The notes beneath the pieces were generated by a model. It did no database searches, was not told the origin of the DNA, and worked only from the letters and a program-made list of their open reading frames with translations. Below are positions 14,050 through 64,000 of a stretch of 64,000 nucleotides of DNA, piece by piece. Every line of letters starts with the position of its first letter. The stretch's first letter is position 1. Position numbers and translations under genes: made by a program. The DNA comes from Candidatus Omnitrophota bacterium (lineage in GTDB: Bacteria > Omnitrophota > Gorgyraeia > Gygaellales > Profunditerraquicolaceae). Where the stretch lies: positions 82,711-146,710 of the forward strand of contig JALOQK010000003.1 of the NCBI GenBank assembly GCA_025453395.1, read 5' to 3'.

Positions 14050-14055
14050 GAGAAT

Positions 14056-15288: not shown

Positions 15289-15294
15289 GCGGAT

Positions 15295-23219: not shown

Positions 23220-23221
23220 AA

Positions 23222-47261: not shown

Positions 47262-47279
47262 CTTTTTAGGAGAATAAAA

Positions 47280-48161
47280 ATGAAAATAAGAAATGCTTAT
47301 ATTTTACCTTTGATAATTGCTTGTTTACTGTTTTTGACAGGTTGCCATAAAGAAACCAAGGTTAAAAACGGCAATGGCGATGTCTATCCGGTTAAAGTAA
47401 GTAAAGTCCAGCTTCGTGATTTAGATGATATTATTGAATATGTGGGCAATGTTAAGGCGCAAGATGAGGCAGTGGTGTATCCTAAGGCAGCAGGTAAGAT
47501 CATTAAGAAGCTTAAGCAGGAGGGCGATATTGTGGCTAAGGCAGAGCCGATCCTTTTGATTGACCGCGATGAGGTGGGGTTGAAATTTGAGAATTCTCCG
47601 GTAGAAAGCCCCATCGACGGGGTAGTAGGCAGGGTATATGTGGACATAGGAGAAAATGTAAGCGCTCAAAGCAAGGTTGCCCTGGTGGTTAATATGGATA
47701 CGGTAAAAATTAATTTAGACATTCCAGAAAAATATCTTTCTAAGATTTCTTTGGGGCAGGAAGCAAAAGTTGGCGTGGATGCCTATCCTAAAGAGGAATT
47801 CCCCGGTAAAATTACCAAGATCAATCCGGTTGTGGATATTGCCAGCCGTTCCGCGCAGGTTGAAATAACCGTGGATAACCCGAAGCATTTCTTAAAGTCG
47901 GGGATGTTCGCTCGCGCCAGCCTTGTCTTGGAAAAACGTTCAAAGATAGTGGTCGTGATGAAGGAATCTGTTATCGGGAAAGGCCCGGATACCTATATTT
48001 ATACGGTCTCAAACGATACGGCATCTTTGAAAAAGGTTTCTTTGGGATTACGCTATGGGGCTTATTATGAGATTAAGAACGGGCTTTCTGCCGGTGATCA
48101 AGTAGTAGTCATGGGGCAGCAAAAACTATTTGAAGGCGCCAAAGTCAAAGTGGAGCAATAA
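47280..48161 (+). CDS. RND efflux periplasmic adaptor (membrane fusion protein, HlyD_D23 family) lipoprotein
   Basis: Lipobox 'LTGC'. Biotinyl-lipoyl-like and beta-barrel blocks ('VESPIDGVVGRVYVDIGENV'). Confidence 0.8.
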   Translation: MKIRNAYILPLIIACLLFLTGCHKETKVKNGNGDVYPVKVSKVQLRDLDDIIEYVGNVKAQDEAVVYPKAAGKIIKKLKQEGDIVAKAEPILLIDRDEVGLKFENSPVESPIDGVVGRVYVDIGENVSAQSKVALVVNMDTVKINLDIPEKYLSKISLGQEAKVGVDAYPKEEFPGKITKINPVVDIASRSAQVEITVDNPKHFLKSGMFARASLVLEKRSKIVVVMKESVIGKGPDTYIYTVSNDTASLKKVSLGLRYGAYYEIKNGLSAGDQVVVMGQQKLFEGAKVKVEQ

Positions 48162-51100
48162 TGAAGCTTCCCGAATTCGGAGTAAAGCGTCCGGTTACCA
48201 ATTTAATGATTTTCTGCGCGATCTTGGTTTTGGCTTTTTACAGCTTAAGCCGTCTGGGTATCGATCTGTATCCAGAAATTGAGCCTCCCGTAGTAAGCGT
48301 TATTACTGCTTATCCCGGGGCCAGCCCTGGGGATGTAGAAATAAAAGTAACCGAAGTCTTGGAAAACCAGTTAGCCACTACTCCGGCTCTGGAGAAAATT
48401 ACTTCTACTTCCGCTGAGGGGATTTCTTTTATAAACTTGAAGTTTATTTGGGGCACAGACCTTGATGCTGCCTCCAATGATATTCGTGATCGTATTGAGC
48501 TTGCTAAGCGGCTCTTGCCTGATATCCCCGATGAAATGGATAATCCTTATATATTCAAGTTTAACTCCGCGAATATCCCGATCCTTTTTATGGGCGTTAC
48601 CGCCAAGGAATCTTACACCCAGTTGTATGATATGATTGACCAGAGGTTAGGCGATGCCTTACGCCAGCTGCCCGGGGTGGGGACAGTGCAAATTCAGGGC
48701 GGCGGCCTTAAAAGGCAGATTAATATTTGGGTAGACAGGCAGAGGCTTGAGGGGTACGGGTTTTCTATCCTGGAGATAAATAATGTTATCGCCAAAGAAA
48801 ATATAACTCAACCGGTGGGGAACCTTAAGACCGGGATGACCGATTACCTTATTCGTTTGCCGGGAGAATTTAAGAATCCGGAAGAGATCAATAACGTTAT
48901 TCTGGGGATGCGTTCTGGAAAGGCAGTTTATCTAAAGGATGTTGCGCGCGTGGAGGATGGTTTTCAGGAAACAGTCAACGTGGTCAGGTTTAATAAAGAG
49001 CCGGCGCTTATGATGATGGTTCAGAAACAAAGCGGGACAAATACCGTTGAGGTTACTGAAAGGGTAAAACAAAAGCTTGCCCAAATGCAAAAGGTCTTGC
49101 CCGCGGATGTTAAGATAAGCATTGTCTTTGATACCTCTAAGGATATTATTAGTTCCATTAATACCTTAACATCTTCTTTGTGGCAGGCGATTGTTTTGGT
49201 TATTTTGGTAGTTTGGTTTTTCTTGCGCCAAGCCTCTCCCAGCATGATTATCGCTTTAAGCATACCCTTCTCATTATTGATAAGCTTTATCTACATATTC
49301 TTGGCGGGCAAGACCATCAACGCTATCAGTTTGTCGTCTTTGGCGATTGCTTCGGGCATGGTTGTGGATAATGCCATAGTGGTAGTAGATAATATTCATA
49401 GGAAGATGGAAAGCGGGCAGCGTATCAAAGAGGCCGCTATCTTCGGGGCGCAGGAGATGTTCTTGCCGATTGTCGCCTCCACGCTTACCACAGTAGTTGT
49501 TTTTGTGCCCATGCTTTTTATCCCCGGAGTAGTTGGTATTATGTTCGGGGAGTTGGCAATAATTGTTATTGTGACGCTTGCGGCCAGTCTTTTTACCGCG
49601 TCGACCTTTACGCCGATGCTTTGTTCCAAATGGATGGCTAAAATTGATAAAGCCAAGAAAGGCTGGGTGCAGGGGTGGTATAACGCTTGGGAAAGAATAT
49701 TTTGTTCTTGGGAAGAGGCCTATTCTAAATCCCTTGCCTGGGCGCTTAAGCATAAGAAAATAGTCATATTGGGCTTTACGGCGATTTTTATTTCTTCGCT
49801 TTTTCTCACCTCTTTTGTAGGGAATGAATTTATCCCCAATGAAGACACGGGGGATGTGCGCTTGACGGTAAATCTTCCTATAGGAACCAGGTTTGAAGAG
49901 TCAGAAAAAGTAGCTTCTAAAATAGAAGACATGATTAAATCCGATGTTCCGGAGGCCAGGCTTTATTTTGCCCGCTGCGGGCAAATTCCCGGGCAGGCTC
50001 GCGCTTATGGCAATACTTCTGGAAGCCATGTGATTGTTGCCGGAGCAAAGCTTGTTTCCAAGACACAGCGCAAGCGTTCGGATACGCAAATCGCGAATTC
50101 TTTGCGCTCAAAAATAGAAAATATCCCCGGAGTAATGAAGATAGATATAACTACCGGCAATCCGATAGGGCGTTTAATTACTGGCACAGGGGGGAAAAGC
50201 ATCCAGGTTGAGATTTTAGGAAATTCTTTTGAAGACACAGATGCTTTAGCAGCTAAGATAAAGCTTATTATGGAAAAGATCAACGGGGCAGTAGACGTGA
50301 GCATCTCCCGTGAAGCTAACCGGCCGGAATTGCGCCTTACCATTGACAGGGAAAAAGCAAGCTTCTTGGGCCTTAATATGTACACCATTACCCAGACTTT
50401 AAATACATATCTGCAAGGGTACACTGCTTCGCGTTATCGCGAGAAGGGTGAAACCTATGATATCTACGTGCGCCTTGAGGAATCTTCCCGCAGTAAAATA
50501 GAAGATATTGAAAATTTATTCGTCGTATCTTCCTCGGGCGAGAAAATACGCTTTTCCAATTTTGCCACTGTCCAGGAGACCACCAGCCCTCAGGAAATAG
50601 AGCGGAAGAACAGGCAGCGCCTTGTCAGGGTAGAATGTAACGCCTTTGGCCGTTCAAGCGGGAAGATAGTAGAAGATGTGAAGACAGCCTTGCGTGATGT
50701 TGTCCTGCCCCAGGATGTGATGCTTAATATCGGAGGCGAGGCCGAAGAGCAGGCCAAGGCCTTTAGAGATATGGGCATTTTGCTGGCCTTGGGGATTATT
50801 TTGGTGTATATGGTAATGGCCGCGCAGTTTGAATCTTTGCTGCAGCCGTTTATTATCATGTTTGCCATTCCTTTTACTTTTACAGGGGTTATCTGGGGAT
50901 TTTTGCTGACAGGGGTTACCTTAAGCTTAATTAGCTATCTGGGGATAATTATGCTAATGGGTATCGTTGTGAATAACGCTATAGTTTTAATAAGCTATAT
51001 TAATATTTTGCGCGCAAGAGGCCACGGTATTCTAGAGGCAGTGACTATGTCCGGGAAAAGTAGATTACGTCCGGTATTGATGACTACCATTACTACCCTA

Positions 51101-51277
51101 GTGGGGTTGTTGCCTTTGGCTTTATCGCGAGGTGAAGGTTCAGAAACTTGGCAGCCATTAGGGGTAACTATGATCGGGGGTTTGACCGTTTCAACCTTGA
51201 TTACTTTATTATTTGTTCCTACATTGTATGCGGTTTTTGAAGTCCGCCGCATTAAAAAGGAAGTGCCAAATGGATAA
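48161..51277 (+). CDS. RND-family efflux transporter permease (AcrB/CzcA superfamily, about 1038 aa)
   Basis: 12-TM + 2 large periplasmic loop architecture. TM4 'ASGMVVDNAIVVVDNI'. Confidence 0.85.
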   Translation: MKLPEFGVKRPVTNLMIFCAILVLAFYSLSRLGIDLYPEIEPPVVSVITAYPGASPGDVEIKVTEVLENQLATTPALEKITSTSAEGISFINLKFIWGTDLDAASNDIRDRIELAKRLLPDIPDEMDNPYIFKFNSANIPILFMGVTAKESYTQLYDMIDQRLGDALRQLPGVGTVQIQGGGLKRQINIWVDRQRLEGYGFSILEINNVIAKENITQPVGNLKTGMTDYLIRLPGEFKNPEEINNVILGMRSGKAVYLKDVARVEDGFQETVNVVRFNKEPALMMMVQKQSGTNTVEVTERVKQKLAQMQKVLPADVKISIVFDTSKDIISSINTLTSSLWQAIVLVILVVWFFLRQASPSMIIALSIPFSLLISFIYIFLAGKTINAISLSSLAIASGMVVDNAIVVVDNIHRKMESGQRIKEAAIFGAQEMFLPIVASTLTTVVVFVPMLFIPGVVGIMFGELAIIVIVTLAASLFTASTFTPMLCSKWMAKIDKAKKGWVQGWYNAWERIFCSWEEAYSKSLAWALKHKKIVILGFTAIFISSLFLTSFVGNEFIPNEDTGDVRLTVNLPIGTRFEESEKVASKIEDMIKSDVPEARLYFARCGQIPGQARAYGNTSGSHVIVAGAKLVSKTQRKRSDTQIANSLRSKIENIPGVMKIDITTGNPIGRLITGTGGKSIQVEILGNSFEDTDALAAKIKLIMEKINGAVDVSISREANRPELRLTIDREKASFLGLNMYTITQTLNTYLQGYTASRYREKGETYDIYVRLEESSRSKIEDIENLFVVSSSGEKIRFSNFATVQETTSPQEIERKNRQRLVRVECNAFGRSSGKIVEDVKTALRDVVLPQDVMLNIGGEAEEQAKAFRDMGILLALGIILVYMVMAAQFESLLQPFIIMFAIPFTFTGVIWGFLLTGVTLSLISYLGIIMLMGIVVNNAIVLISYINILRARGHGILEAVTMSGKSRLRPVLMTTITTLVGLLPLALSRGEGSETWQPLGVTMIGGLTVSTLITLLFVPTLYAVFEVRRIKKEVPNG

Positions 51278-51563
51278 AATGATTATGATCATCTATAACG
51301 AAGCCATAGACATTGAAGTTATGGAGGTTTTAGAAAAGTGCGCGGTAAAAAGTTATACTAAGGTTCCGGGGGTCTTTGGCGCAGGAGAAAAATCCGGCAT
51401 ACATTTAGGCGATGATATCTGGCCGGGAAGGAACAATTTGCTTTTTGCTGCGGTAAACGCCATCCAGTCGGCAAAGGTTTTGGAAGAAATAAGAAAGTTA
51501 CGAATAAGTTTAGCCCATGAAGGGGTTAAGGCGTTTGTTATGCCAATTGAATCCTTCACATAA
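51270..51563 (+). CDS. PII-like small protein (DUF3240-like, commonly encoded next to RND pumps)
   Basis: 'MIMIIYNEAIDIEVMEVLEKCAVKSYTKVPGVFGAGEKSG' follows the beta-alpha-beta PII/GlnB-like pattern. Start taken at 'MDKMIMII', overlapping the RND stop. Confidence 0.4.
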   Translation: MDKMIMIIYNEAIDIEVMEVLEKCAVKSYTKVPGVFGAGEKSGIHLGDDIWPGRNNLLFAAVNAIQSAKVLEEIRKLRISLAHEGVKAFVMPIESFT

Positions 51564-53187: not shown

Positions 53188-53317
53188 TAAAGTAAATCTA
53201 ACACAGCAGCCCTAAGATGTAAAGGGAATTTAGGATTGTAAGGGAAATGTAAAATCAGCTTAAAAGGTATTGCAATTGTCTTTGGAAAGAGGTATATTTT
53301 GTATAAGGAGAATTATC

Positions 53318-56300
53318 ATGGAAAAGATTACCGGGAATAAAGGGATGGTTCTTATTGTTTCTCTTTTCTTGGCCATTGTAATCGCTACCATGGCTGGCAT
53401 ATTATATTTTCGCGCGGTTAACGAATCGCGTTTGTCAGTAATAAGCGACGCGGCGCTTCAGGCTTTTTACGAAGCAGAGGCGGGACTGGCTTTTGCTTAT
53501 GCCGCGGAAAAAAAGAGCAATTTTACCTGGTTTACCCACGCAGATAAGATTACAAAGGCAAGCGCAGTTTCGGTTCCTTCTGGCGTTCCGGGCGCAATTG
53601 ATAACTCAAGCGGTTGTTATGTTGTATCAGGGCGTAATTTTAAAGTCAAAACTTTCCCAGAGAAAAAAGGTACTGTTGAAACCGGAATTGTGGTTGTGCT
53701 GTCACAGGCTACTATTAACGGGGTTACCCGTACTTTAGAGCATCGCATTGGCCAGAAATCCGCTTATCAATATTTTTTCTTCTTTCCTGAAGACCACACC
53801 TTTGATACCGCCACTTACGACGGACGCAACTTTGGCGGGCTTCATGTGAATGGCGATATCAACCTTATCAACCATCCGACCTTTGCTTTCTTAACTGAAT
53901 TAAGCAGCGGTTCAAATACTTCCCATAAAGGCTATATCCGAAGGCCGCTTTTAGAGGCCTTTACAGCTTTAAGCGGCAACAAGGATTATAATATTTCAGC
54001 TTCTAGCGTCCAAGGGCTTCCATGGCAGCTTTATACAAATATTAACTATCGCACTTCAAACGGAGATATCGGTTCAGGAACATATACTACTTTTAAGATT
54101 GGCGATATCAACAGCCCCGCAACAATAAATATCCCAGAATATATGGGCGGGCAGTGGTCATTTGATAAATATACCAAGGCGGGTTCGCCCACAACTTATA
54201 ATATTACGGAAACCTCTTTGAAGAATGCCGGATTGCGAGAGATTACTTCTTCCGCAGGAGATGTTTCCTTGTTTGATAATAACAAATCTATCAATATCAA
54301 CTTTGGGGGTTCACCAGAAAGCCTTACTGAGAAAGAAATGTTTAAGAGGATATACAACCTTCCGGATGATCAGCAAACCAGTTATTGGAGCCAATATTGG
54401 GATCAGTGGAAAGTCAATCATAATTCCGATTATTCAGCTTATCATACTTCTGGAGTGTTAACAGCGGGAGATGATTGGAAAAGAAGATTATTTTGGGCAA
54501 CTTATGACTGGAAAGATTACAATTCTGACGGTATCCCTTACGGAATAAACCGGGAGTGGTGGGAAGATTTAAGTTATGGAGACGATTATTACGATTATGG
54601 CCCTAATGGCACATCCCCGGCCTGCGTGGTAGACCACGACACAGGATTGTCATTAGATAAATATTTCTTGAACACAGAAGAACAGGGTACGCAATGGAAA
54701 AATTTGTTAGATGCAAACAACCTTGATGAGGCCGCAGATAATAAAACCCTTGTTTTAGACAGAAGCCAGGGCGGCAAAGAAATCAATGCCGGGGATATCA
54801 TTAGCAATTATGATACTTCAAGTTATAGTGTTTTAGAAGGCCAAGCGCGCAACAGCGGGATTTATATGGGGGTTAAGACTGATCAGGCCTATAAGGATTG
54901 GCAGATTTTGGCTGTGACTGCCAGCATGAAGGCAAATTCTGCGCTTGATAAAGCGAATGCCAAATTTTCTGAATGCACGGTAAAATATAATCAGACCGCA
55001 TGTTCTTCAACTTCCGGAGGCTCAACATCAGCAGAAGCCGTTGCTTGTTGGTCAGATTATAGCGGCCTATACCAAAAATATACTCAAGCTTATGGCGAAT
55101 ACACGCAAGTTATGCAGGATAAGCCTCCTACTGTTTGGTGGGAAGGTAAAAATTCAAATCTTCTTAAGGATTGCGTTTCTGAAACTCCGTTTTATAACGC
55201 GCAAAACCCTGCCCGGGGCAGCGATGGGAAATATTCTCCCAGCCATATCCTTACCATTGATTTAGCTAAGCTTAAAAGCAATATTGACCAGAAAGGTTCG
55301 GGTTTTAACGGGATCATCTATATAGATTTGGACGCTTACCAATGGCAAGAGAATACTGTGGATGACGGAACTAAAGTTTCAGATGAAAAGAGCGCTATTG
55401 GAGTAATGTTTGTTAATGGAGAGCGCCTTCCGGATCAGGGTTTAAGCATAGTTACTAAGCATAATGTTTACGTTAAGGGGGATTTTAACCTTGACCCGGA
55501 TGGAGATTCTAGCCGTAACCGCGCTGCCGACCCCTCAAATGTTTTAAATACCGTTGCGAATAATAAAGGCCTTGATGTTGATGATTTTAAATGGCGCCCA
55601 GCGGAAATAATCACCTACAGGCAGGTATACTTTCTATCGAATGATTTCAATCTGCCAAAAACCATGCCTTTATTGGATACACAATATGGGCAATTTTACG
55701 ATGAATATTATAATAAGACTCGAGCGGATGTGGTTACGCATCCTTTATATGGCGCACCGGATACTGCCACAAGCGCTTCTGCCAGTTGGATGCCTGCGTA
55801 TAATAGCTCGGATTCTTCATGGGGGAAGATAAATGATTGGTTTTCTCTTACCGGGATAACCCCCCCAGCTTCATGGGATGTAAACTGGCTTGATGGCAAT
55901 CAGCTGAACCAGATGGATTCCACCCCGGATTTGTTAACTGGCGTAAACGGGAAACAATACCCCAAATGGGATAATTACAGCTGGAGTGATTCTTATGTCT
56001 ATAAATTAGACGATGGCTCAGGCGGGACAACATATATCATGCGTCAGGATTTAAAGTATCAACTTTATAGCAAAGTACTGAGTGCCTATAGAAATCAATA
56101 CGCTTACAATGTTAGTAACTCGCCCGCGGCATACCAGATGGTTGATGTTGTGACCCGCCCGGAAAGCTATATTTACAATACGGCAGTGATTACTCCCTAT
56201 GCCCCAGAGGGGTATAGTTTAGAGCGCTGGAACAATAAGAATCGCGTGATTAACGGCGCGTTTATTCAGCTGCCTTCAGGTATGCAACTTCCCGTTCCCG

Positions 56301-56476
56301 TTGAATCTTATAAGGATACTGGTTCCGGAGCAATAAGGTTTAACCAGCCCAAGAAAACATTTAATTATGAGTCTCGCTTTGGTAAAAACGGGGATCCTTC
56401 TGATCAGCCCCACGCAAGGTTATTATTTGGCATGGATTCAACATGGAGGGAAATAAATAATGCCGCGTTTCAATAA
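53318..56476 (+). CDS. Giant PilX-N-domain minor-pilin-like protein (about 1050 aa), a putative pilus tip adhesin
   Basis: N-terminal 'KGMVLIVSLFLAIVIATMAGILYFRAVNESRLSVISDAALQAFYEAEAGLAFAYA' matches the PilX_N pattern (hydrophobic helix + 'QAFyaAEAGl'). The remainder is N/Y/W/D/S/T-rich with no TM. Confidence 0.55.
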   Translation: MEKITGNKGMVLIVSLFLAIVIATMAGILYFRAVNESRLSVISDAALQAFYEAEAGLAFAYAAEKKSNFTWFTHADKITKASAVSVPSGVPGAIDNSSGCYVVSGRNFKVKTFPEKKGTVETGIVVVLSQATINGVTRTLEHRIGQKSAYQYFFFFPEDHTFDTATYDGRNFGGLHVNGDINLINHPTFAFLTELSSGSNTSHKGYIRRPLLEAFTALSGNKDYNISASSVQGLPWQLYTNINYRTSNGDIGSGTYTTFKIGDINSPATINIPEYMGGQWSFDKYTKAGSPTTYNITETSLKNAGLREITSSAGDVSLFDNNKSININFGGSPESLTEKEMFKRIYNLPDDQQTSYWSQYWDQWKVNHNSDYSAYHTSGVLTAGDDWKRRLFWATYDWKDYNSDGIPYGINREWWEDLSYGDDYYDYGPNGTSPACVVDHDTGLSLDKYFLNTEEQGTQWKNLLDANNLDEAADNKTLVLDRSQGGKEINAGDIISNYDTSSYSVLEGQARNSGIYMGVKTDQAYKDWQILAVTASMKANSALDKANAKFSECTVKYNQTACSSTSGGSTSAEAVACWSDYSGLYQKYTQAYGEYTQVMQDKPPTVWWEGKNSNLLKDCVSETPFYNAQNPARGSDGKYSPSHILTIDLAKLKSNIDQKGSGFNGIIYIDLDAYQWQENTVDDGTKVSDEKSAIGVMFVNGERLPDQGLSIVTKHNVYVKGDFNLDPDGDSSRNRAADPSNVLNTVANNKGLDVDDFKWRPAEIITYRQVYFLSNDFNLPKTMPLLDTQYGQFYDEYYNKTRADVVTHPLYGAPDTATSASASWMPAYNSSDSSWGKINDWFSLTGITPPASWDVNWLDGNQLNQMDSTPDLLTGVNGKQYPKWDNYSWSDSYVYKLDDGSGGTTYIMRQDLKYQLYSKVLSAYRNQYAYNVSNSPAAYQMVDVVTRPESYIYNTAVITPYAPEGYSLERWNNKNRVINGAFIQLPSGMQLPVPVESYKDTGSGAIRFNQPKKTFNYESRFGKNGDPSDQPHARLLFGMDSTWREINNAAFQ

Positions 56477-56867
56477 GAATAAGGGTTTTAGTTTGATTGA
56501 AATCCTTGTTGCCTGCGTGATTATCGCGGCATCCGCAGGAGCTTTTATGCTGTCTTTAGGCCAGACAGCTAAGGCAACCGGAACATTTGATGATACCGAT
56601 ATAGCGCTTAATGCCGCCCAGTCTAAGATGGAAGAGGTCGGAAATGAAGATTTTAGCACCGATAATATAGCTAATATTATATCAGCATACAATAATAAAT
56701 ATTTCGCGGTATCCGGGCTTTCCGCGCCAAACAATTGGCCCAACCCAATACTTGTGACTATAAGCCAGATCAATAATGATTTATATGATGTTTTGGTTAA
56801 AGTAAGTTGGCAGGCCAGGGGAAGGACATATCTTAAGCAATTAAAAAGGACATTCGCTTTGAAATAA
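56460..56867 (+). CDS. Type IV pilin / pseudopilin with prepilin N-terminal cleavage-methylation motif
   Basis: 'NKGFSLIEILVACVIIAASAGAF' = G|FxLIE prepilin peptidase site plus hydrophobic helix. Confidence 0.75.
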   Translation: MPRFNKNKGFSLIEILVACVIIAASAGAFMLSLGQTAKATGTFDDTDIALNAAQSKMEEVGNEDFSTDNIANIISAYNNKYFAVSGLSAPNNWPNPILVTISQINNDLYDVLVKVSWQARGRTYLKQLKRTFALK

Positions 56868-56868
56868 T

Positions 56869-57486
56869 ATGAAGAATAAGGGGTTTACTTTAGTTGAAGT
56901 ATTTATTTCTGCGGGGATAATGTTATTGGTTGTTGGGACAGCCTATACTATTATCTTGACAGGAAATTTTTCTATGAACACGCAGGAAAACGAAATTAAT
57001 GCTCAAAATTCCGCGCAGCTTGCCTTATTTCAAATAGCCCAAGATTTACGCCTTGCAAGCGGAGTTAAGGTTTGGGTTTCTGACGGTTTTGGGACTACAC
57101 AGGGCACACCAGCAGTCGCCTATAAAGTAGTAAACTTTCAAATACCTGTGGGCAGCTTTGAGTCTGCGATAGCTCTGGATAGCAATAATTACATTTCTTG
57201 GGGCAGTGAAAGGCTAAGCTTAAGCGATGATGGCACGGGTAATTATATCGCTTATAGCCTCGATAACCAGGGCCAGATCATAAGGACAGTTTATAGCGCG
57301 TCTGGCACAGTCTATACCACTAAAAAGACAAGGATTGTGGCAAGGAACATTTCTAGCCTGAATTTCACGCGCAGCTTATCAGAAAATTTACTGCAGATTC
57401 AAATTACTTCTAATATTCTAGCCAGCAAGCAGTCCGCGCCCATACAAAAGACGGTGTCCACGACAGTATTATTAAGGAACGGTTAA
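56869..57486 (+). CDS. Minor pilin (PilW/GspJ-like) with prepilin N-terminal motif
   Basis: 'NKGFTLVEVFISAGIMLLVVGTAY' prepilin motif. 'LALFQIAQDLRLAS' resembles PilW-type minor pilins. Confidence 0.7.
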   Translation: MKNKGFTLVEVFISAGIMLLVVGTAYTIILTGNFSMNTQENEINAQNSAQLALFQIAQDLRLASGVKVWVSDGFGTTQGTPAVAYKVVNFQIPVGSFESAIALDSNNYISWGSERLSLSDDGTGNYIAYSLDNQGQIIRTVYSASGTVYTTKKTRIVARNISSLNFTRSLSENLLQIQITSNILASKQSAPIQKTVSTTVLLRNG

Positions 57487-57531: not shown

Positions 57532-57560
57532 TTGACAGGGTTGTTTTGTCTTTATATAAT
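57532..57560 (+). promoter_or_regulatory. Consensus sigma70 promoter TTGACA-N17-TATAAT in front of the biosynthetic locus
   Basis: Read directly. TTGACA at 57532-57537, 17-nt spacer, TATAAT at 57555-57560. RBS 'gaaggaag' precedes the ATG at 57614. Confidence 0.6.
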
Positions 57561-57613
57561 AACGAGAAATTAGAATAGTAAAATTTTACTATATTAAAAA
57601 AAGAAGGAAGTTT

Positions 57614-57892
57614 ATGGATTGGGATATAGAGGTAAAAGAGCGCCTAAAGCAGATGACTGCGAAGATTCCGGTTTTTCACCGGCACATTACCCAAAACGCG
57701 GTTACGCTTAAGGCGGAAGAAAACGCCCGCCAAAGAAACTGCCCCAAGGTGGAAGAAGTGGATGTCTTGGGCGCTTTTTTTTCGGATGTGCCTTCGCCAT
57801 TCTACAGTATGATGGTCAGGCTATTAGAGCAAAGCGGTTTTGACTATAAAAAATACGGTTTTCCTAAAACGAAACCCAAACTTATGGAGTGA
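57614..57892 (+). CDS. PCP_red-domain small protein (the domain is otherwise C-terminal in protochlorophyllide reductase subunit B; standalone form of unknown function)
   Basis: 'WDIEVKERLKQMTAKIPVFHRHITQNAVTLKAEENARQRN' matches the PCP_red pattern W..eA...l..iP.fvR..v....E..Ar. Confidence 0.5.
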   Translation: MDWDIEVKERLKQMTAKIPVFHRHITQNAVTLKAEENARQRNCPKVEEVDVLGAFFSDVPSPFYSMMVRLLEQSGFDYKKYGFPKTKPKLME

Positions 57893-57901
57893 TAACGCAC
57901 T

Positions 57902-57921
57902 CCTGCCTGCCGGCAGGCAGG
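57902..57921 (+). terminator. Perfect 20-nt GC palindrome CCTGCCTGCCGGCAGGCAGG followed by a weak T-rich tract; terminator or attenuator between the PCP_red gene and the reductase gene
   Basis: Read directly. The downstream tract 'taagtttgaggttgagttt' is only weakly U-rich. Confidence 0.4.
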
Positions 57922-57940
57922 TAAGTTTGAGGTTGAGTTT

Positions 57941-58000
57941 ATCCCGACGAATATGCCAAAATTATGGAACAGAATTTTGGCATAGTTTATGAGTCGGGAT
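57941..58000 (+). promoter_or_regulatory. Nested inverted repeats ATCCCGAC-[ATGCCAAAATT-loop-AATTTTGGCAT]-GTCGGGAT forming a roughly 60-nt stem-loop 20 nt upstream of the reductase start
   Basis: Read directly. Outer arms are 57941-57948 / 57993-58000. Inner arms are 57953-57963 / 57973-57983. Confidence 0.45.
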
Positions 58001-58019
58001 AGAGAAGCAATAAAATAGA

Positions 58020-59030
58020 ATGAAAATTGGGGTTATTGGCGCCGGGGCAATAGGCAACCTTGTTGCCGCGTATCTTAAATTAAAAGAAGAAGATGTTTTT
58101 CTTGCTGGCACAGCATCGTCTATTGATGCCATAAAGAAAAATGGCCTTGATGTTTCTGGTGTGCGCGGAGATTTTCATCTGTCTTTAGATTGCGGATTAT
58201 TGCTTAATGAAAAAAAAGACCTTGTAATACTGGCGGCCAAGACACAGGATTTAAAAGAAGCCCTTAACGCCAACTTAGATTTTATTAAAGGCGCTTTATT
58301 GGTTACTACGCAAAACGGCGTTGCCGCAGATAGTATTGCTGCTGGTTTTGCCCCCAAGGAAAATATTATCTCAAGCATTGTTATGTTTGGCGCTACTTAT
58401 TTAGAGCCGGGAAAAATAGTGCATAATTTTGAAGGAAGCTGGATTTTAGCAGGCGCCTTTGGCAAAAATAATAAAAAAACCCCGCAGGTATCAGAGGTTT
58501 TAAATAAAATATTCCCTTGTTTAGTAAGTGAAGATATCCGGGGGATGAAGTATTTAAAGATCTTTGTTAACGCCAACAATTGTATCCCGGCGGTATTAGG
58601 CCAGAGCATGCAGGAAGCGTTCTCTGACCTAGAAATAAGCAGAATCAGTATTGCTATTTGGAAAGAGGCCATGGATGTGGTTTCGCGCTCTAATATAAAA
58701 CTTGTTTCTCTGCCGGATTTTCCTCTTGAAAGGCTAGTGCGTATGACCCAAATGCCGATTTCCGAAGCCGCGCGCATTTATTCCGGGATCATGGCGTCTT
58801 TAAGCAAACAGCCCGTTTATGGCTCGATATTGCAGAGTATTAAACGTAAACGCGCTTCCGAAATAGATTACATTAATGGCGAATTCGTTTCTCTGGCAAA
58901 AGTCCATAATTCACAGGCGCCGCTTAATGAAATGCTGGTTAGTATGGTGCACAGGGTAGAAAAAACAGGGGATTTCTTTTCAAAAGAAGAGCTTTTGAGT
59001 AAAACCAAAGATTTAGTGGAGAAGATATGA
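58020..59030 (+). CDS. Ketopantoate-reductase-family (ApbA/PanE-like) NAD(P)H-dependent reductase
   Basis: 'MKIGVIGAGAIGNLVAAYL' Rossmann motif. ApbA_C-like C-terminal half ('EIDYINGEFVSLAK'). Confidence 0.65.
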   Translation: MKIGVIGAGAIGNLVAAYLKLKEEDVFLAGTASSIDAIKKNGLDVSGVRGDFHLSLDCGLLLNEKKDLVILAAKTQDLKEALNANLDFIKGALLVTTQNGVAADSIAAGFAPKENIISSIVMFGATYLEPGKIVHNFEGSWILAGAFGKNNKKTPQVSEVLNKIFPCLVSEDIRGMKYLKIFVNANNCIPAVLGQSMQEAFSDLEISRISIAIWKEAMDVVSRSNIKLVSLPDFPLERLVRMTQMPISEAARIYSGIMASLSKQPVYGSILQSIKRKRASEIDYINGEFVSLAKVHNSQAPLNEMLVSMVHRVEKTGDFFSKEELLSKTKDLVEKI

Positions 59031-59620
59031 GCGAAGTCAATACACCGTTCCCAAAACTAAGGTTAACCGTTAGCGCTGTTTATGGTGAATGTTACCATGG
59101 CTACAAAAAGGGCGACGAAATAATTTTAGAGGATTTTACCCACCCGCCAAAGCATTTTTGTCTGGGCCTGGCGCATGCCCTTTTTCCGGTAATTTACGCG
59201 TTAAGTTTCGGAGCAAGATTTCCCTTTCGTGACAATCAAAGGTCTTTATTGGTGACCTGCCCTGATGGTGGTAAGCTTGAATTTAAAGCTGAAATCTTAA
59301 ACAAAGATGGCAAGATAGAAGAAATGCCTAAGGATCCGAATTTCAAAGGGCCAAATCCAAAGAAGATGATAATTGAGGTGGTTGAGGCAAAAGGAAAATG
59401 TACTTTTGGTTATAAAGTAGGCGATAAATGGGAGACTTGTGGCTTGAAGTGTATTCCCGGATTTTGCGGAGCAGCATTTCATACTGCCTTTCCGGCATTG
59501 TTCGCGCTTAATTTTGGCGCCAAGTTCTTTTTTATGCAGGATCCAAATTCTATTGATACTGTAACTTGTCCCGATGGCGGGAACATTATATTTAAGGTAA
59601 AAAGGATTGAAGAGAAATAA
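59027..59620 (+). CDS. Tandem-duplicated TIGR04076-like Cys-rich protein (two copies of about 95 aa, each ending in CPDGG)
   Basis: Internal repeat: 'CYHGYKKGDEI...HPPKHFCLGLAHALFPVIYALSFGARFPF...LLVTCPDGGKLEFK' versus 'CTFGYKVGDKW...CIPGFCGAAFHTAFPALFALNFGAKFFF...DTVTCPDGGNIIFK'. Confidence 0.5.
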   Translation: MSEVNTPFPKLRLTVSAVYGECYHGYKKGDEIILEDFTHPPKHFCLGLAHALFPVIYALSFGARFPFRDNQRSLLVTCPDGGKLEFKAEILNKDGKIEEMPKDPNFKGPNPKKMIIEVVEAKGKCTFGYKVGDKWETCGLKCIPGFCGAAFHTAFPALFALNFGAKFFFMQDPNSIDTVTCPDGGNIIFKVKRIEEK

Positions 59621-59622
59621 TT

Positions 59623-60885
59623 ATGAATAAAAAACGCGTTGTGATTACAGGTTTAGGGGTTATATCCCCCAATGGCATTGGAAAAGATAATGTCTGGCAG
59701 GCGATGGTAAATGGAAAGTCCGCGGTGCGTAGGGTGGATAGTTTTGATGTTTCGGTTTTTAACACCAAGATTGCCGCCGAGGTTAGAGATTTTGATCCTT
59801 TTAAATTGGGCCTAACCCATGACGAGGCCATGCGTATGGACCGCTATGTGCAGTTTGGGGTTGTGGCAGCTGATATGGCGATAAAGGATAGTAAATTAGA
59901 TTTTTCTAAAGTAAACCTAGAGCGCGTGGGGGTGTGCCTTGCCAATGCCATCTGCGGCACAAAATATATGGAAGAAGAATTCGCCCTTGTTACTGATGAC
60001 GGGAGAAATCCCATTGATCCTTTAAAGGTGCGCCCTGATTTGTATGATGCCGCGATGTTTAATACTCCCTCCATAGAGATTTCCGCGCGTTATAAATTAA
60101 AAGGTTTCTGCAACACTCTTTCTACCGGTTGCACCGCCGGGACAGACTCGCTTGGATTCGGTTTAGAGGCCATTCAGGACGCAGAACAGGATATTATGGT
60201 CTGTGGCGCGGCCGAGGCGCCGATTACGCCGATTACCTTTGGGGCTTTTGACGTGGTCAATGTCTTGTCTGTGCATAATGATATTCCGGAACAGGCCTCC
60301 AGGCCGTTTGATAAGAAACGTAACGGCTTTGTGATTTCCGAGGGGGCAGGGATACTTATCTTGGAAGAATTAAGCCACGCCTTAAAAAGAAACGCGCATA
60401 TTTACGCGGAGGTATCGGGTTTTGGCACAAGCTGTAACGCCTTTCATATGACTGACCTGCCTTCTGACGGAACAGCTATGGCAAATTGTATTAATCTTGC
60501 CCTTGCCGATGCTTCTATGAAACCGCAGGAGATCGATTACATAAATGCCCATGGCTCTTCCACGCGCATGAACGATATCTTTGAGACTGCGGCCTATAAA
60601 ATGTCATTTGGGGATTACGCCTATAAATTGCCGGCAAGTTCCTTAAAATCCATGATCGGCCACCCGTTAGCTGCGGCAAACGCCATAGAGTTAGTGGTTT
60701 GTTGTTTTATTTTTAAGAATAATATTCTTCCTCCGACAATAAATCAAGAGGAGCGCGACCCTTTATGCGACTTGGATTATGTTTCAAACGTGGCACGGGA
60801 AAAGAAAGTAAATACAATATTAAAGACTTCAAGCGGTTTTTCAGGGATACATTCGGCCTTAATTGTGAAGAGGTTCAAAGAATAA
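59623..60885 (+). CDS. Beta-ketoacyl-ACP synthase (KAS I/II / type-II PKS KS-alpha-like), catalytically complete
   Basis: 'RVVITGLGVISPNG'. Active-site Cys in 'LSTGCTAGTDSL'. 'NAHGSST' His and 'MIGHPLAAANAIE' His are both present. Confidence 0.8.
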   Translation: MNKKRVVITGLGVISPNGIGKDNVWQAMVNGKSAVRRVDSFDVSVFNTKIAAEVRDFDPFKLGLTHDEAMRMDRYVQFGVVAADMAIKDSKLDFSKVNLERVGVCLANAICGTKYMEEEFALVTDDGRNPIDPLKVRPDLYDAAMFNTPSIEISARYKLKGFCNTLSTGCTAGTDSLGFGLEAIQDAEQDIMVCGAAEAPITPITFGAFDVVNVLSVHNDIPEQASRPFDKKRNGFVISEGAGILILEELSHALKRNAHIYAEVSGFGTSCNAFHMTDLPSDGTAMANCINLALADASMKPQEIDYINAHGSSTRMNDIFETAAYKMSFGDYAYKLPASSLKSMIGHPLAAANAIELVVCCFIFKNNILPPTINQEERDPLCDLDYVSNVAREKKVNTILKTSSGFSGIHSALIVKRFKE

Positions 60886-60886
60886 A

Positions 60887-62119
60887 ATGGATAGAAAAAT
60901 AGCAATCACAGGTTTAGGGATAGTCGCTCCTTCGGGAATAGGCCGTAGGCAGTTTTGGGCAAACATTAAATCCGCAAGAAGCTTTGTGAAAAAGATCAAC
61001 CGTTTTGACGCTTCTCGGTATCCATCGCATATTGCCGGGCAAATTGATGAGCTTGATAAGTATAGCAATGTCTCCGAGCGGCTTCTAAAAAAGATGGATG
61101 CCTTTTCCCACATGGCGTTGATTGCTTCGGAGCTGGCGTTAGAGGATGCCAAGATTGATATAAAAAAAGAAGACCCGAATTTAGTGGGGATATTTTTGGG
61201 CAATGCCATTGGCGGCTGGCTTTATGCCGAAACAGAATTAAGGGACCTGTATATTGAGGGAAGAGACGGAGTTTCTCCTTATATGGCCTCAGCCTGGTTT
61301 CCGGCTGCGCCGCAGGGCCAGGTGTCTATTTATTACGGGATAAAAGGTTTTTCTAAGACCGTTGTTTCTGACCGCGCCAGCTCCCTTGACGCGTTAGGCT
61401 ATGCCAGAAAAACCATTTCTAAGGGCAAGCTAAATATGATTTTAGCCGGAGGCATGGAAGCGCCGGTTACTCCTTATGCTCTTTTATGCTGCAATACTTA
61501 TGGCGGGCTTTCCGTAGAGAATGATAACCCGGAAACAGCCTATAGGCCATTTGATAAGAAAAGAAGCGGGTTTGTTATTGCTGAAGGAGCCGGGATAGTG
61601 GTGTTAGAGCCGCAGGAAAGAGCTTGCAAGCGAAATGCTCCGGTTCAGGCCTATATCTGTGGTTATGGCTCTACCTGCGACGCAGTAGACAGGATTAATC
61701 CGGATAAAGAAGGCAAAGAATTAGCCCGCGCGATTAACATGGCTTTATCTGATGCTAACTTTTCTCCTGAAGATATTGATTATATAAGCCTTGATGGCTT
61801 AGCAGTGGGCGTGTGGGATGATTCAGAAATTAAAGCCCTAAAAGAGGTTTTTGGAAAGCGTATGGAAAAAATACCAGTTAGCTGCCCCAAGAGCATGTTT
61901 GGAAACTTATTGGGCGCATCTGGGGCGGTGGACCTTATCGCAACAATTTTAGCTATGGAGAATAATTTGATTCCGCCTACCATAAATGTAGAATCTTGCG
62001 CCTATGAAGGGATAAACTTGATTTGCAATAAGGCAGTTCCAGCAGAAATAAAAAAAGCGCTTATTATCTCCCGCGGCAGAGGCGGGATAAATTCAGTCTT
62101 GGCAATAGAGAAAGCATAA
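60887..62119 (+). CDS. Ketosynthase-like protein lacking the Cys-His-His triad (KS-beta / chain-length-factor-like partner)
   Basis: Thiolase fold ('IAITGLGIVAPSG'). The Cys position reads 'VVSDRASSLDA' with no Cys. The 'HGT' position reads 'SLDGLAVG'. The 'GH' position reads 'FGNLLGASGA' (His to Asn). Confidence 0.7.
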   Translation: MDRKIAITGLGIVAPSGIGRRQFWANIKSARSFVKKINRFDASRYPSHIAGQIDELDKYSNVSERLLKKMDAFSHMALIASELALEDAKIDIKKEDPNLVGIFLGNAIGGWLYAETELRDLYIEGRDGVSPYMASAWFPAAPQGQVSIYYGIKGFSKTVVSDRASSLDALGYARKTISKGKLNMILAGGMEAPVTPYALLCCNTYGGLSVENDNPETAYRPFDKKRSGFVIAEGAGIVVLEPQERACKRNAPVQAYICGYGSTCDAVDRINPDKEGKELARAINMALSDANFSPEDIDYISLDGLAVGVWDDSEIKALKEVFGKRMEKIPVSCPKSMFGNLLGASGAVDLIATILAMENNLIPPTINVESCAYEGINLICNKAVPAEIKKALIISRGRGGINSVLAIEKA

Positions 62120-62227
62120 AGCGTAAAACGAAAAATTAAAAACCATAATTCAAAACTCAAAATTTTTAATTTTACACTATAGTTTTTCACTTTGAGCTTT
62201 TAGTTTTACGCTAAAAATGGAGGATTT

Positions 62228-63688
62228 ATGAAGATTTTATTTGTGATGCCTAAAGTTGGAGCCTGGGCTACCCACGGAATACATCGTTCGCCTAACCAGC
62301 TTTACGCGCATTGGGCCGCCTATGTCCGCGAAAGAGGCTATAAGGATATCGCGGTTATAGACGGAAAAGCTGATCAGACCCCTATGGATGAATTAGTCCA
62401 AAAGGTTAAAGTTATAAATCCCGATGTGGTAGTTATGGGTGAGCAGCTGCATGGTTATGGCGGATACGGGGTCCTAAGGCATTTTAAAGAAGCAGCGCAA
62501 AAGATTAAAAAGGCGCTTCCCAGGACTAAAATCATCTTAGGCGGCTTGTGGTATTCAGCTATGCCAGTACCCACCCTTGAGGAAAACCCGGAAGTAGATT
62601 TTATTGTCATGGGCGAAGAAGAATCCTTTGGCGATTTAATAGAAGCAATAGACAAAAAAACGGATCTTAAGAATGTAGGAGGGGTTACTTCTCGCGTAGA
62701 CGGACAAATTGTGATGGGGCCGCATAAACCATTAATGAAAGACTTGGATAAATTGCCTTTGCCGGCCTATGATTTGTTTCCCATGGATAAATATGTGGGC
62801 CACACTTATTGGAAACCATTTGTGGATATGGTAACAAGCCGCGGTTGTCCTTCGGCGTGCACATTTTGTTATGAGTGGGATCAATATGATCCTCGCCATC
62901 CTTCGGATTTTTTGACTTGGCGCGCCAAATCTCCAGAGAGAGTCATTGAGGAGATGGAAGTCCTGCAGAATAAATATGGGGTAAAGGTAGTAGTTATCCA
63001 GGATGATAATTTTAATGTCGACCCGGAACGGGTAAGAAAATTTTGTGAATTAAAAAAGAAGAAGAAAATTGATATTAAATGGGTTTCCTTAGGAAGAGCC
63101 ATTGACTGGGTGAATTGTGAACAAGTATTGCCATTAATGAAAGAAACCGGGCTTTTTATGGGAGTTTTCGGCATTGAGGTAACTACACAGTCAGAGCTTA
63201 AGAAAATCGCCAAGGGTATTACTCTTGATCAGATCCAGAAAACTATTGAGCTTTTGCGCAAACACGATATCGCCATTGTCGCGGATATTATGATGGGTTT
63301 TGATTATGACACCGAGCAGATTATTAAGAAGCGATTTGAATTTACCGATCAGGTTGATCCGGATATTTTGTGGGTGGGCTACGTAACCCCAGCTCCTAAT
63401 TCTCCGATGTGGAGGATCGCCATGAAGAAAAACTGGATCGATCCTAAGAAAGTTGATTTCAGCACTTGGGATTTTCTGCATCCGGTTATTCCTACGGATC
63501 ATCTTACTACCGAAGACTTAGGCAGGCTTGGCTCATGGTGCATGAGAGAATTTTTCTCTAAGCCCGGAAGAATACATAGGATCATGGAAAGCAATTTTGA
63601 TCCTCTAGCGAAGTTATGCTTTAAAGATGTTATGGATGGGATTAATAAATGGGAAAACGCAGCCACTAAAGGTGAAGTGCAGATATAG
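62228..63688 (+). CDS. Cobalamin-binding-domain radical SAM enzyme (class B radical SAM)
   Basis: N-terminal B12-binding-like Rossmann domain. 'SRGCPSACTFC' = CxxxCxxC radical SAM cluster motif. Confidence 0.8.
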   Translation: MKILFVMPKVGAWATHGIHRSPNQLYAHWAAYVRERGYKDIAVIDGKADQTPMDELVQKVKVINPDVVVMGEQLHGYGGYGVLRHFKEAAQKIKKALPRTKIILGGLWYSAMPVPTLEENPEVDFIVMGEEESFGDLIEAIDKKTDLKNVGGVTSRVDGQIVMGPHKPLMKDLDKLPLPAYDLFPMDKYVGHTYWKPFVDMVTSRGCPSACTFCYEWDQYDPRHPSDFLTWRAKSPERVIEEMEVLQNKYGVKVVVIQDDNFNVDPERVRKFCELKKKKKIDIKWVSLGRAIDWVNCEQVLPLMKETGLFMGVFGIEVTTQSELKKIAKGITLDQIQKTIELLRKHDIAIVADIMMGFDYDTEQIIKKRFEFTDQVDPDILWVGYVTPAPNSPMWRIAMKKNWIDPKKVDFSTWDFLHPVIPTDHLTTEDLGRLGSWCMREFFSKPGRIHRIMESNFDPLAKLCFKDVMDGINKWENAATKGEVQI

Positions 63689-63730
63689 CCCGCAGTTATG
63701 GACAGGTAAGAACTCAAAAAGAGGAGTAAG

Positions 63731-63961
63731 ATGGATACAAAAGCAAAAATAAAAGATACCTTTGTGAAGCTACTTAAAGTAAAGCCAGAAGAATTAAAAG
63801 ACGAAGTGTCTTTGGTAAATAGCATTGGAGTAGATTCAACCGAGATGGTGGAAGCCTTGATTGCCTTGGAGAAAGTCTTTAATACCAAGCTTGGGCCCAA
63901 AGAGATTACCAAGAATTCTACCATAAGCGAAATCGAAAAAGTTATTCAGTCCAAACTATAA
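63731..63961 (+). CDS. Acyl carrier protein
   Basis: 76 aa. 'IGVDSTEMVEALIALE' contains the phosphopantetheine-attachment DS motif in a helix II-like context. Confidence 0.7.
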   Translation: MDTKAKIKDTFVKLLKVKPEELKDEVSLVNSIGVDSTEMVEALIALEKVFNTKLGPKEITKNSTISEIEKVIQSKL

Positions 63962-64000
63962 GGCGGCATCTGATGCGCATAATTGACTTGAGCCTTCCCA

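Follow-up and report, generated by a model that had tools for sequence, protein, structure and literature searches.

The subject of this report is a biosynthetic operon at the end of a 64,000-nucleotide stretch of the genome of a Candidatus Omnitrophota bacterium (contig JALOQK010000003.1, positions 82,711 to 146,710; this whole stretch is referred to as the window). Seven genes between positions 57614 and 63961 appear to form the 5' half of an operon of about 12 core genes encoding an aromatic type II polyketide synthase (PKS) of Candidatus Omnitrophota, a reading of the sequence to which a probability of roughly 0.7 is given. A PF04199 cyclase, an aromatase/cyclase (ARO/CYC) of the TcmN/WhiE type, a short-chain dehydrogenase/reductase (SDR) and a decarboxylase of the aromatic-acid type, together with the scores of the ketosynthase (KS), point to an aromatic type II PKS. 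Catalytic motifs are intact in the KS, the acyl carrier protein (ACP), both cyclases, the decarboxylase, an enzyme of the ketopantoate reductase (KPR) family and the core of a cobalamin (B12)-binding radical S-adenosylmethionine (SAM) enzyme.

Layout of the operon

An earlier note on this DNA, made from its letters alone, had described seven co-directional, tightly packed genes in a locus running past 64000, among them a complete ketosynthase, a ketosynthase-like protein lacking Cys-His-His, a dedicated ACP, a cobalamin-dependent radical SAM enzyme, an ApbA/PanE-like reductase and a duplicated TIGR04076-like CPDGG protein. All seven open reading frames (ORFs) were recovered on the + strand at the same coordinates, and each of these protein assignments held. 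The distances between genes 2 to 7 are, in order, -4, +2, +1, +108 and +42 nt. The next gene starts at 63973 and is cut by the window end; from there the operon was read on L001, a 187-kb Joint Genome Institute (JGI) metagenome contig that encodes an identical radical SAM protein (window position = L001 position + 52227). In all, the analysis covered about 74 kb of the source genome. The features of the operon in the window, where CLF denotes chain-length factor, are as follows.

57614-57892, + strand: 92-aa helical protein, DUF2621-like and weakly PCP_red-like (sub-threshold Pfam matches)
57893-58019, + strand: structured 127-nt spacer, specific to the source genome's branch (minimum free energy -47.8 kcal/mol, z -5.9)
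58020-59030, + strand: KPR-family NAD(P)H oxidoreductase, 336 aa (ApbA and ApbA_C domains)
59027-59620, + strand: tandem-duplicated TIGR04076 Cys/His-rich protein, 197 aa (TIGR04076 twice)
59623-60885, + strand: ketosynthase KS-alpha, 420 aa (ketoacyl-synt N and C domains; C170, H310, H347)
60887-62119, + strand: CLF-like dead ketosynthase, 410 aa (ketoacyl-synt N and C domains; R163, D303, N340)
62228-63688, + strand: B12-binding radical SAM enzyme, 486 aa (Pfam B12-binding and Radical_SAM)
63731-63961, + strand: dedicated acyl carrier protein, 76 aa (PP-binding, Ser36)
63973-64000, + strand: beginning of the gene for the OxyN-type cyclase (PF04199), truncated where the window stops (continues at L001 11746-12546)

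Ketosynthase, chain-length-factor-like partner and acyl carrier protein

The catalytic triad of the KS lies in the motifs STGCTAG, NAHGSST and MIGHPL, and is conserved in a divergent lineage of the operon described below. Its partner, 35% identical to it and with a start codon 1 nt past the KS stop, retains no triad: the aligned residues are R163, D303 and N340, with Asp162 preceding Arg163. These three residues are invariant in 26 orthologues, and the pattern D-R/D/N is kept in the divergent lineage. Among solved structures the KS scores highest against the actinorhodin KS-alpha (1TQY_A, 374 bits), followed by Photorhabdus AntD (353 bits) and the best FabF (342 bits). Its score falls to 289 bits with the anammox KS 9S5H, 232 with the ishigamide KS and 216 with 7F27. 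The CLF reaches 263 bits against the actinorhodin CLF. In the ACP, which matches PP-binding with an E value of 2.4e-9, Ser36 occupies the phosphopantetheine-attachment position in the motif GVDST.

It is extremely unlikely that these genes serve housekeeping type II fatty-acid synthesis, with the KS as the FabF of the cell and the remaining genes as its neighbours. The best NCBIfam matches of the KS are FabF models and it passes the PRK07314 subfamily cutoff (443.9 against 387 bits), but it falls below the cutoff of the fabF equivalog TIGR03150 (454.4 against 493.75 bits), just as the ACP falls below the cutoffs of the acpP equivalogs. Very high conservation, a strong, constitutive-looking promoter and the frequent presence of AccA upstream would suit a housekeeping role; however, the partner of the KS is obligately dead and cyclases accompany the pair, fabD, fabH, fabZ and fabI are absent, neither the window nor L001 shows fabD/fabG/acpP/fabZ neighbours, and most relatives carry an exporter within the operon. 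The earlier note had itself raised the case of a housekeeping FabF, which came out negative for the roughly 74 kb of the genome covered.

Cyclases, reductase and decarboxylase

On L001 the ACP gene is followed by genes for the PF04199 cyclase, a 160-aa SRPBCC protein, an SDR, a 129-aa protein without a family and an Amidohydro_2 protein. The tailoring genes that had been expected beyond the window are therefore present, and an export gene is found at this place in most relatives. The PF04199 cyclase scores 104 bits (cutoff 23.1) and carries the metal motif HIGTHLDYSFH (HxGTHxDxxxH). The SRPBCC protein matches the solved TcmN and WhiE ARO/CYC structures at 93-95 bits (E 1e-25) and keeps the equivalents of TcmN W28, F32, E34, Y35, W65, S67 and R69, which we take to be the essential pocket residues. 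The Amidohydro_2 protein matches the non-oxidative decarboxylases ACMSD, LigW and gamma-resorcylate decarboxylase, and retains both the N-terminal HxH and the Asp of GSDWP.

These genes bear directly on the pathway that the earlier note had favoured, an unusual lipid, ladderane-like or polyene pathway in which a reduced or conjugated acyl chain would come from the KS/CLF pair and be cyclised or methylated by the B12-binding radical SAM enzyme. Such a pathway now appears very improbable. The operon contains no dehydratase (FabZ/FabA), enoyl reductase or phytoene-desaturase homologue, which leaves the lipid, polyene and ladderane readings unsupported, and it does contain two aromatic-polyketide cyclases and an aromatic-acid decarboxylase, all conserved. 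A KS, a dead KS, an ACP and a B12-binding radical SAM enzyme also form the core of the anammox ladderane cluster, but the enzyme described here scores 80.8 bits against the ladderane model TIGR04072 (rSAM_ladder_B12), whose cutoff is 360. Both KS proteins score well with fabF models; the KS scores higher against the actinorhodin and Ant ketosynthases than against 9S5H, the ishigamide KS or 7F27. In favour of such a pathway, 'ladderane' and aryl-polyene clusters have been reported in Omnitrophota by antiSMASH-type surveys of biosynthetic gene clusters.

Two further genes occur within the operon of relatives and are absent from the source genome. A transporter of the major facilitator superfamily (MFS), of the efflux type, lies between the ARO/CYC and SDR genes in 27 of 35 related loci, and a secreted CBM_11-like protein with a signal peptide is encoded inside the operon in 28 of 44. 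Examples of the transporter and the CBM_11-like protein are found at L008 14300-15424 and L010 15164-15775. The source genome, for its part, has an insertion between the decarboxylase and phosphorylase genes (L001 15455-18184, about 3.7-6.4 kb past the window end): an HTH_17 and Fic pair, followed by a 301-aa TIGR04076-containing protein whose gene overlaps that of a radical SAM/SPASM enzyme. The HTH/Fic pair is shared only with L033 and L034. The source genome thus has two pairings of TIGR04076 with a radical SAM enzyme.

The B12-binding radical SAM enzyme and the accessory proteins

The radical SAM enzyme has its cluster motif CxxxCxxC at C206, C210 and C213. Its highest-scoring named families are BchE (TIGR02026, 214.6 bits, cutoff 481.35), with which it has in common the B12-binding and radical SAM architecture and the CxxxCxxC motif, and HpnJ (159.9 bits, cutoff 578). 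No DUF4070 tail was detected in it by Pfam scan, and its best match in the PDB is AprD4 (60 bits). A class B C-methyltransferase that decorates the aromatic core, as happens in other natural-product pathways, rather than an anaerobic oxidase or cyclase, is a serious possibility at somewhat less than even odds. The enzyme matches many B12-binding radical SAM methylases (PhpK-type models at 109-111 bits, HpnR at 107 and BzaD at 100, with TokK and CysS among the PDB matches), and many 'BchE-like' annotations have turned out to be methylases. On the other hand, BchE and HpnJ are not methylases and their scores are about 1.5 to 2 times those of the methylase models; the divergent locus L085, moreover, also carries a conventional SAM methyltransferase.

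Close relatives of this enzyme are few. Only about five full-length relatives above 35% identity were found among 1.84 billion 50%-identity representatives, with lower scores falling to generic BchE-like levels; a profile of the close relatives retrieved 536 proteins, and the named ones were all from Omnitrophota. The idea that all relatives are linked to PKS genes was rejected, as a paralogous clade (about 44-46% identical to the representative P0243) sits near ribonucleotide-reductase genes. Its members are always followed by a 265-270-aa radical SAM protein and have no PKS nearby; at L088 6292-8594 and L089 10001-12267 the neighbours are NrdD or the small subunit of ribonucleotide reductase. 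Membership of the family alone does not, therefore, imply linkage to a PKS.

For the 92-aa protein, the ORF at 57614-57892 proposed in the earlier note exists, while its label as a PCP_red protein is weak and DUF2621-like is the better one. The protein scores 17.0 bits against PCP_red (PF08369; E = 0.006, cutoff 32.5) and 19.6 bits against DUF2621 (PF11084; cutoff 27.7). DUF2621 matches 40 of 41 orthologues, with a best E value of 1.6e-7, against 19 of 41 and a best of 6e-4 for PCP_red, both remaining sub-threshold; a DUF2621 match is recorded for the orthologue in L087. A PDB profile search with the family returned nothing relevant and no BchB/ChlB chain, and a single-sequence AlphaFold2 model (predicted TM-score 0.35) was too poor for a structure search. 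The gene is always next to that of the KPR-like enzyme, and in the divergent lineage adjoins the radical SAM and KPR-like genes. An apparent fusion of the 92-aa protein with the KPR-like enzyme in two loci proved to be an artefact, the frame being interrupted by a stop codon.

The KPR-like enzyme lies above the cutoff of the TIGR00745 subfamily (147.8 against 141.35 bits) and far below those of all equivalog models. Its best PDB match is the Thermococcus kodakarensis KPR (87 bits), and the QNG, K..K..VN and E-x-D-Y-I-x-G motifs (Asn/Lys/Glu) are kept. The beta-keto or enoyl reductase role suggested for it earlier is unnecessary for an aromatic product. The tandem TIGR04076 protein scores 98.5 bits (cutoff 33), with two repeats and a CPDGG in each half. 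It is a lineage-specific accessory, seen in the lineage of the window and in L090. In a literature search, TIGR04076 was mentioned only in passing and DUF2621 not at all.

Conservation and rearrangement of the operon in Omnitrophota

With one genome scanned for each GTDB species, relatives of the CLF turned up in 355 species genomes; the best 80 of these loci were compared. At least 120 clusters of CLF proteins, formed at 90% identity, are 76-81% identical to the CLF of the window (the query accounts for one of them, at 100%), and those with a name belong to Omnitrophota. The identical CLF has its database entry under Candidatus Omnitrophica. The best 80 loci have 73-79% identity and are almost all labelled Omnitrophota; a few carry the labels 'Planctomycetales', 'Pseudomonadota' or 'Patescibacteria' at the same identity, which is probably a matter of the labelling of metagenome-assembled genomes. 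The gene-neighbourhood check proposed in the earlier note gave a clear answer: the order and strand of the genes present are the same in 80 of 80 loci, and contig ends alone truncate them. In pairwise comparison the core enzymes share 79-87% identity. Median pairwise identity between loci is 85% for the radical SAM enzyme, 84% for the SDR, 81% for both the KS and the tandem TIGR04076 protein, 79% for the CLF, 77% for the ARO/CYC and 74% for the cyclase, compared with 65.7% for syntenic flanking orthologues in the same genome pairs.

The divergent lineage was seen in three contexts of relatives of the radical SAM enzyme and in several metagenome contigs. Its identity to the lineage of the window is 71% for the KS, 61% for the CLF and 49% for the radical SAM enzyme. 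Here the gene string runs from PadR and the promoter through a FadD-like AMP ligase, PNP_UDP_1, an MtnA-like isomerase, a short IF-2B protein, a class II aldolase and an aldehyde dehydrogenase to the B12-binding radical SAM enzyme; there follow the DUF2621-like, KPR-like and, in some cases, DUF4440 proteins, the KS, CLF, ACP, cyclase and ARO/CYC, an MFS transporter in some cases, the SDR, a PC4-like protein and the Amidohydro_2 protein. No TIGR04076 gene is present in the loci of this lineage that were examined. The place between the KPR-like gene and the KS gene, held by the tandem TIGR04076 gene in the lineage of the window, is occupied by a gene for a DUF4440 (NTF2/SnoaL-like fold) protein at L087 12804-13232 and in L100, L105 and L137. 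This protein may be a functional substitute for the TIGR04076 protein, or an extra cyclase.

Other arrangements are found in L090, where the order is KPR-like, tandem TIGR04076, KS and CLF genes and, further on, SDR, Amidohydro_2 and radical SAM genes, and in L107, where the radical SAM gene lies between those of the SDR and the Amidohydro_2 protein. The radical SAM, DUF2621-like and KPR-like genes are linked to KS/CLF in at least three rearranged lineages. That this linkage has survived several rearrangements suggests that the three are not passengers.

A salvage-type block attached to the synthase

In the lineage of the window, the decarboxylase gene is normally followed (as in L002) by genes for PNP_UDP_1, an MtnA-like isomerase, a class II aldolase, an aldehyde dehydrogenase and an AMP ligase. 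Four loci and the whole divergent lineage have this block on the upstream side, and it is linked to the PKS genes in three arrangements. The isomerase (IF-2B) is above the cutoff of TIGR00524 (200.5 against 185.85 bits); the phosphorylase is below all equivalog cutoffs; the aldehyde dehydrogenase, with 534 bits to BADH-type models, belongs to the non-acylating type; and the ligase, at 455 bits, resembles FadD. At L001 20001-20999, the class II aldolase has a C-terminal extension with a weak match to SCP2 (lipid or acyl-carrier-like), which is unusual for an aldolase of the dihydroxyacetone phosphate (DHAP) shunt.

By gene content, with adjacent PNP_UDP_1, IF-2B and Aldolase_II genes, the block would qualify as a DHAP shunt. 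This shunt removes 5'-deoxyadenosine or 5'-methylthioadenosine (MTA). The enzymes of the block also match those of a second pathway, the one that leads from 5'-fluoro-5'-deoxyadenosine to fluoroacetate. North 2020 and Beaudoin 2018 reportedly identified such enzymes as a DHAP shunt for radical SAM by-products. The simplest reading of the block is disposal of the radical SAM by-product, with the C2 acid returned to the acyl-CoA pool. The order of chemistry (phosphorylase, MtnA-like isomerase, class II aldolase, aldehyde dehydrogenase) would be that of the DHAP shunt and fluoroacetate pathways; the Omnitrophota block differs from these in its FadD-like acyl-CoA ligase and in its firm attachment, in three arrangements, to a PKS operon.

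Alternatively, the block could build a starter unit for the PKS from a SAM-derived 5'-substituted 5'-deoxyadenosine, giving acetyl from 5'-deoxyadenosine or methylthioacetyl from MTA, in a mirror of the fluoroacetate route. The constancy with which the whole block, ligase and dehydrogenase included, stays with the PKS genes is consistent with this, as is its place inside the same promoter-led gene string in the divergent lineage; so too is a CLF without the Gln that is associated with decarboxylative priming. This is nonetheless an unlikely explanation, as the same enzymes are familiar from the DHAP shunt and the locus has neither a SAM halogenase or other 5'-modifying enzyme nor a dedicated priming KSIII or acyltransferase.

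Weighing the assignment

Several observations count against an aromatic type II PKS, or against parts of the pathway proposed for it. The KS leads FabF by a modest margin (374 against 342 bits), and the best score of the CLF is to FabF. A Gln aligned with the KS Cys is the hallmark of actinobacterial CLFs; here Arg163 takes its place, which bears on chain priming. No phosphopantetheinyl transferase or malonyl transferase is encoded within 10 kb. The SDR is generically FabG-like and not specifically similar to the actinorhodin ketoreductase, which makes its step a guess. With respect to chemistry, the radical SAM enzyme is far below every curated family cutoff, and no functional fold match was obtained for the TIGR04076 protein. 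Finally, the salvage block could owe its position to shared descent and not to a shared function. As regards the CLF, non-actinobacterial CLFs have been reported to score poorly with actinobacterial CLF models (PMC10132072).

Promoter, regulators and upstream region

The regulatory and transport features upstream of the operon are as follows.

44934-45452, + strand: PadR-family regulator, the probable cluster regulator (PF03551 PadR, TIGR03433)
45548-51563, + strand: MarR regulator, outer-membrane factor, membrane-fusion protein, resistance-nodulation-division (RND) pump and PG0541-family protein (Pfam OEP, RND-MFP, ACR_tran; NF045581 82.7 bits)
57532-57560, + strand: sigma-70-type promoter TTGACA-N17-TATAAT (12/12 match)

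The textbook promoter proposed in the earlier note is the sole 12/12 match within 16 kb. In 51 of 61 related loci, a sequence agreeing with this consensus at 11 or more of the 12 positions stands 60-125 nt ahead of the first gene, and the promoter is also present in the divergent lineage. AccA and PadR are the ancestral upstream neighbours of the operon. Type-A loci have a PadR orthologue some 630 nt ahead of the first operon gene, and PadR comes directly before the promoter in the divergent lineage; in the source genome, inserted genes separate it from the operon. One insertion is the MarR-OEP-MFP-RND-PG0541 block, which occupies the same place in at least 14 other species and is a possible export or self-resistance module, its association with the operon being inferred. 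The in-operon MFS pump and the upstream RND system were also considered as mutual replacements, a proposal that was unsupported (counts 12 / 5 / 2 / 4); the two are not mutually exclusive.

A further insertion in the source genome consists of genes for a two-component system and a 1068-aa protein, along with two pilin-like genes. At 53270-57486, between the efflux block and the operon, the 1068-aa protein, which has no Pfam match, precedes two small proteins whose N-termini, GFSLIE and GFTLVE, resemble those of type IV pilins (the N_methyl match is weak). These three genes are absent from 80 of 80 related loci. The spacer between the first two operon genes, which folds into two strong hairpins (one a perfect 18-nt palindrome, unique in the window), corresponds in other loci to a gap with a median of 2 nt. 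It could be an inserted element, or a signal for mRNA processing or stability.

Other features of the window

The background of the window is that of an ordinary chromosome, with genes for EF-G, YchF, PurH, FolC, MnmE, FolE, AccA and glycosyltransferases, and no riboswitch or RNA gene was found by Rfam across the whole window. Of 56 called genes, 52 are on the + strand. GC skew is positive in every 2-kb bin and the cumulative skew climbs monotonically from 1 to 64000, placing the window on the leading strand of one replichore. Just upstream of EF-G, at 22230-25424, two ATP-grasp proteins are followed by a lysine-2,3-aminomutase-like radical SAM enzyme (LAM_C), a group that could be a small peptide- or beta-amino-acid-forming unit. 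At 13096-17070 a MoxR-type AAA ATPase (bpMoxR), a DUF58 protein and a 591-aa protein without a family lie amid glycosyltransferase genes.

Relation to known systems

The closest parallel is the 'ancestral' layout of non-actinomycete type II PKSs, in which KS, CLF and ACP are combined with TcmN-type and OxyN-type cyclases, as for clostrubin, dendrubin and AQ-256 (PMC7693217). The Omnitrophota operon resembles these in its KS-alpha, CLF and ACP, its TcmN-type ARO/CYC and OxyN/PF04199 cyclase, its single oxidoreductase and its transporter and regulator genes; several of those systems have anaerobic hosts, and AntD is the second-best solved relative of the KS. It differs in having a monodomain TcmN-type cyclase placed after the OxyN-type one, and an Arg at the Cys site of the CLF. 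It also keeps a B12-binding radical SAM enzyme, a DUF2621-like protein, a KPR-family reductase and an Amidohydro_2 decarboxylase, with the tandem TIGR04076 protein in two lineages, whereas the description of the den cluster lists no radical SAM enzyme. Furthermore, in place of a sporadic distribution it shows phylum-wide, near-housekeeping conservation, and it is tied to a block of the 5'-deoxynucleoside salvage type.

As for the actinorhodin and tetracenomycin/WhiE PKSs of Streptomyces, the actinorhodin KS-alpha is the best solved relative of the KS and the ARO/CYC resembles TcmN and WhiE; however, the Omnitrophota operon lacks the CLF Gln, cyclases of the TcmI/TcmJ type and oxygenases, and has radical SAM tailoring in the style of an anaerobe. 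Anammox 'Cluster I' for ladderanes contains amxACP, amxFabZ, amxFabF2/amxFabFmut, a phytoene-desaturase homologue and a radical SAM enzyme (preprint 10.64898/2026.05.19.726425). Shared with it are a KS/CLF-like pair made up of an active and a dead KS, a dedicated ACP, a radical SAM enzyme and a host from the Planctomycetes-Verrucomicrobia-Chlamydiae (PVC) group; in contrast, the Omnitrophota operon has no FabZ or desaturase, has aromatic cyclases, has a radical SAM enzyme outside TIGR04072, and has a KS that scores against 9S5H below its scores to FabF and the actinorhodin KS. BchE, the anaerobic Mg-protoporphyrin monomethyl ester cyclase, and HpnJ, which carries out hopanoid cyclitol ring contraction, have the same N-terminal B12-binding domain and radical SAM core, and offer a model for oxygen-independent oxidation or C-C chemistry, but the Omnitrophota enzyme is far below both cutoffs and is found among PKS genes rather than tetrapyrrole or hopanoid genes.

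A 2023 catalogue places Candidatus Omnitrophica among the phyla with KS-CLF pairs and describes no cluster (PMC10132072), and polyketides go unmentioned in the main genomic study of the phylum. No description of the operon, its accessory set or its phylum-wide conservation was found in the literature. Read as a type II PKS, the operon is not a new kind of system; it is distinct through its anaerobic tailoring module and its unusual metabolic attachment.

A proposed pathway and its biological role

In the proposed pathway, the KS/CLF heterodimer would condense malonyl units iteratively on the ACP, supplied by the malonyl-CoA:ACP transacylase of the host, to give a poly-beta-ketone. The two cyclases would then fold and aromatise this chain into a fused-ring phenol or an anthrone-like core, the SDR may reduce one carbonyl, and the decarboxylase would take off the terminal carboxylate. 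The BchE/HpnJ-like radical SAM enzyme, with the DUF2621-like and KPR-like proteins, may carry out an oxygen-independent C-H oxidation, C-C bond formation or C-methylation, a step that would stand in for the oxygen-dependent tailoring of aerobes. Export would occur through the MFS pump, which most relatives have, or through the adjacent RND system, and PadR would act as the regulator upstream of the near-consensus promoter. The co-inherited block would dispose of the 5'-deoxyadenosine made by the radical SAM enzyme, giving DHAP and an acyl-CoA.

An operon that is almost unchanged in hundreds of species, and always accompanied by the B12-binding radical SAM enzyme, suggests that its product probably matters to these bacteria; conservation at the level of the phylum argues for a physiological role over that of a sporadic antibiotic. 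A bolder version, rather doubtful as a whole, would make the product a phylum-wide, constitutively expressed aromatic polyketide with a core role, with the radical SAM enzyme and its partners replacing an oxygenase and the SAM by-products feeding the acyl unit of the synthase. In anaerobic nanobacteria, an aromatic polyketide may serve as a redox-active quinone or electron carrier, or as an oxygen protectant. Clostrubins are reported to let anaerobes tolerate oxygen, which makes oxygen protection one plausible kind of role for the product, next to that of a redox carrier.

Type II PKSs are usually seen as sporadic actinomycete pathways for antibiotics or pigments, whereas the Omnitrophota operon has been retained, gene for gene, across hundreds of species. 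The operon, with its B12-binding radical SAM, DUF2621-like, KPR-like and TIGR04076 proteins, offers a defined candidate set for the oxygen-independent tailoring of aromatic polyketides; its genes are all small and intact, which makes heterologous reconstitution realistic. It also reveals an unexpected hard link between a PKS and a route of the 5'-deoxynucleoside salvage type. For the Omnitrophota, an uncultured, mostly anaerobic phylum with ultra-small cells, it points to a conserved small molecule.

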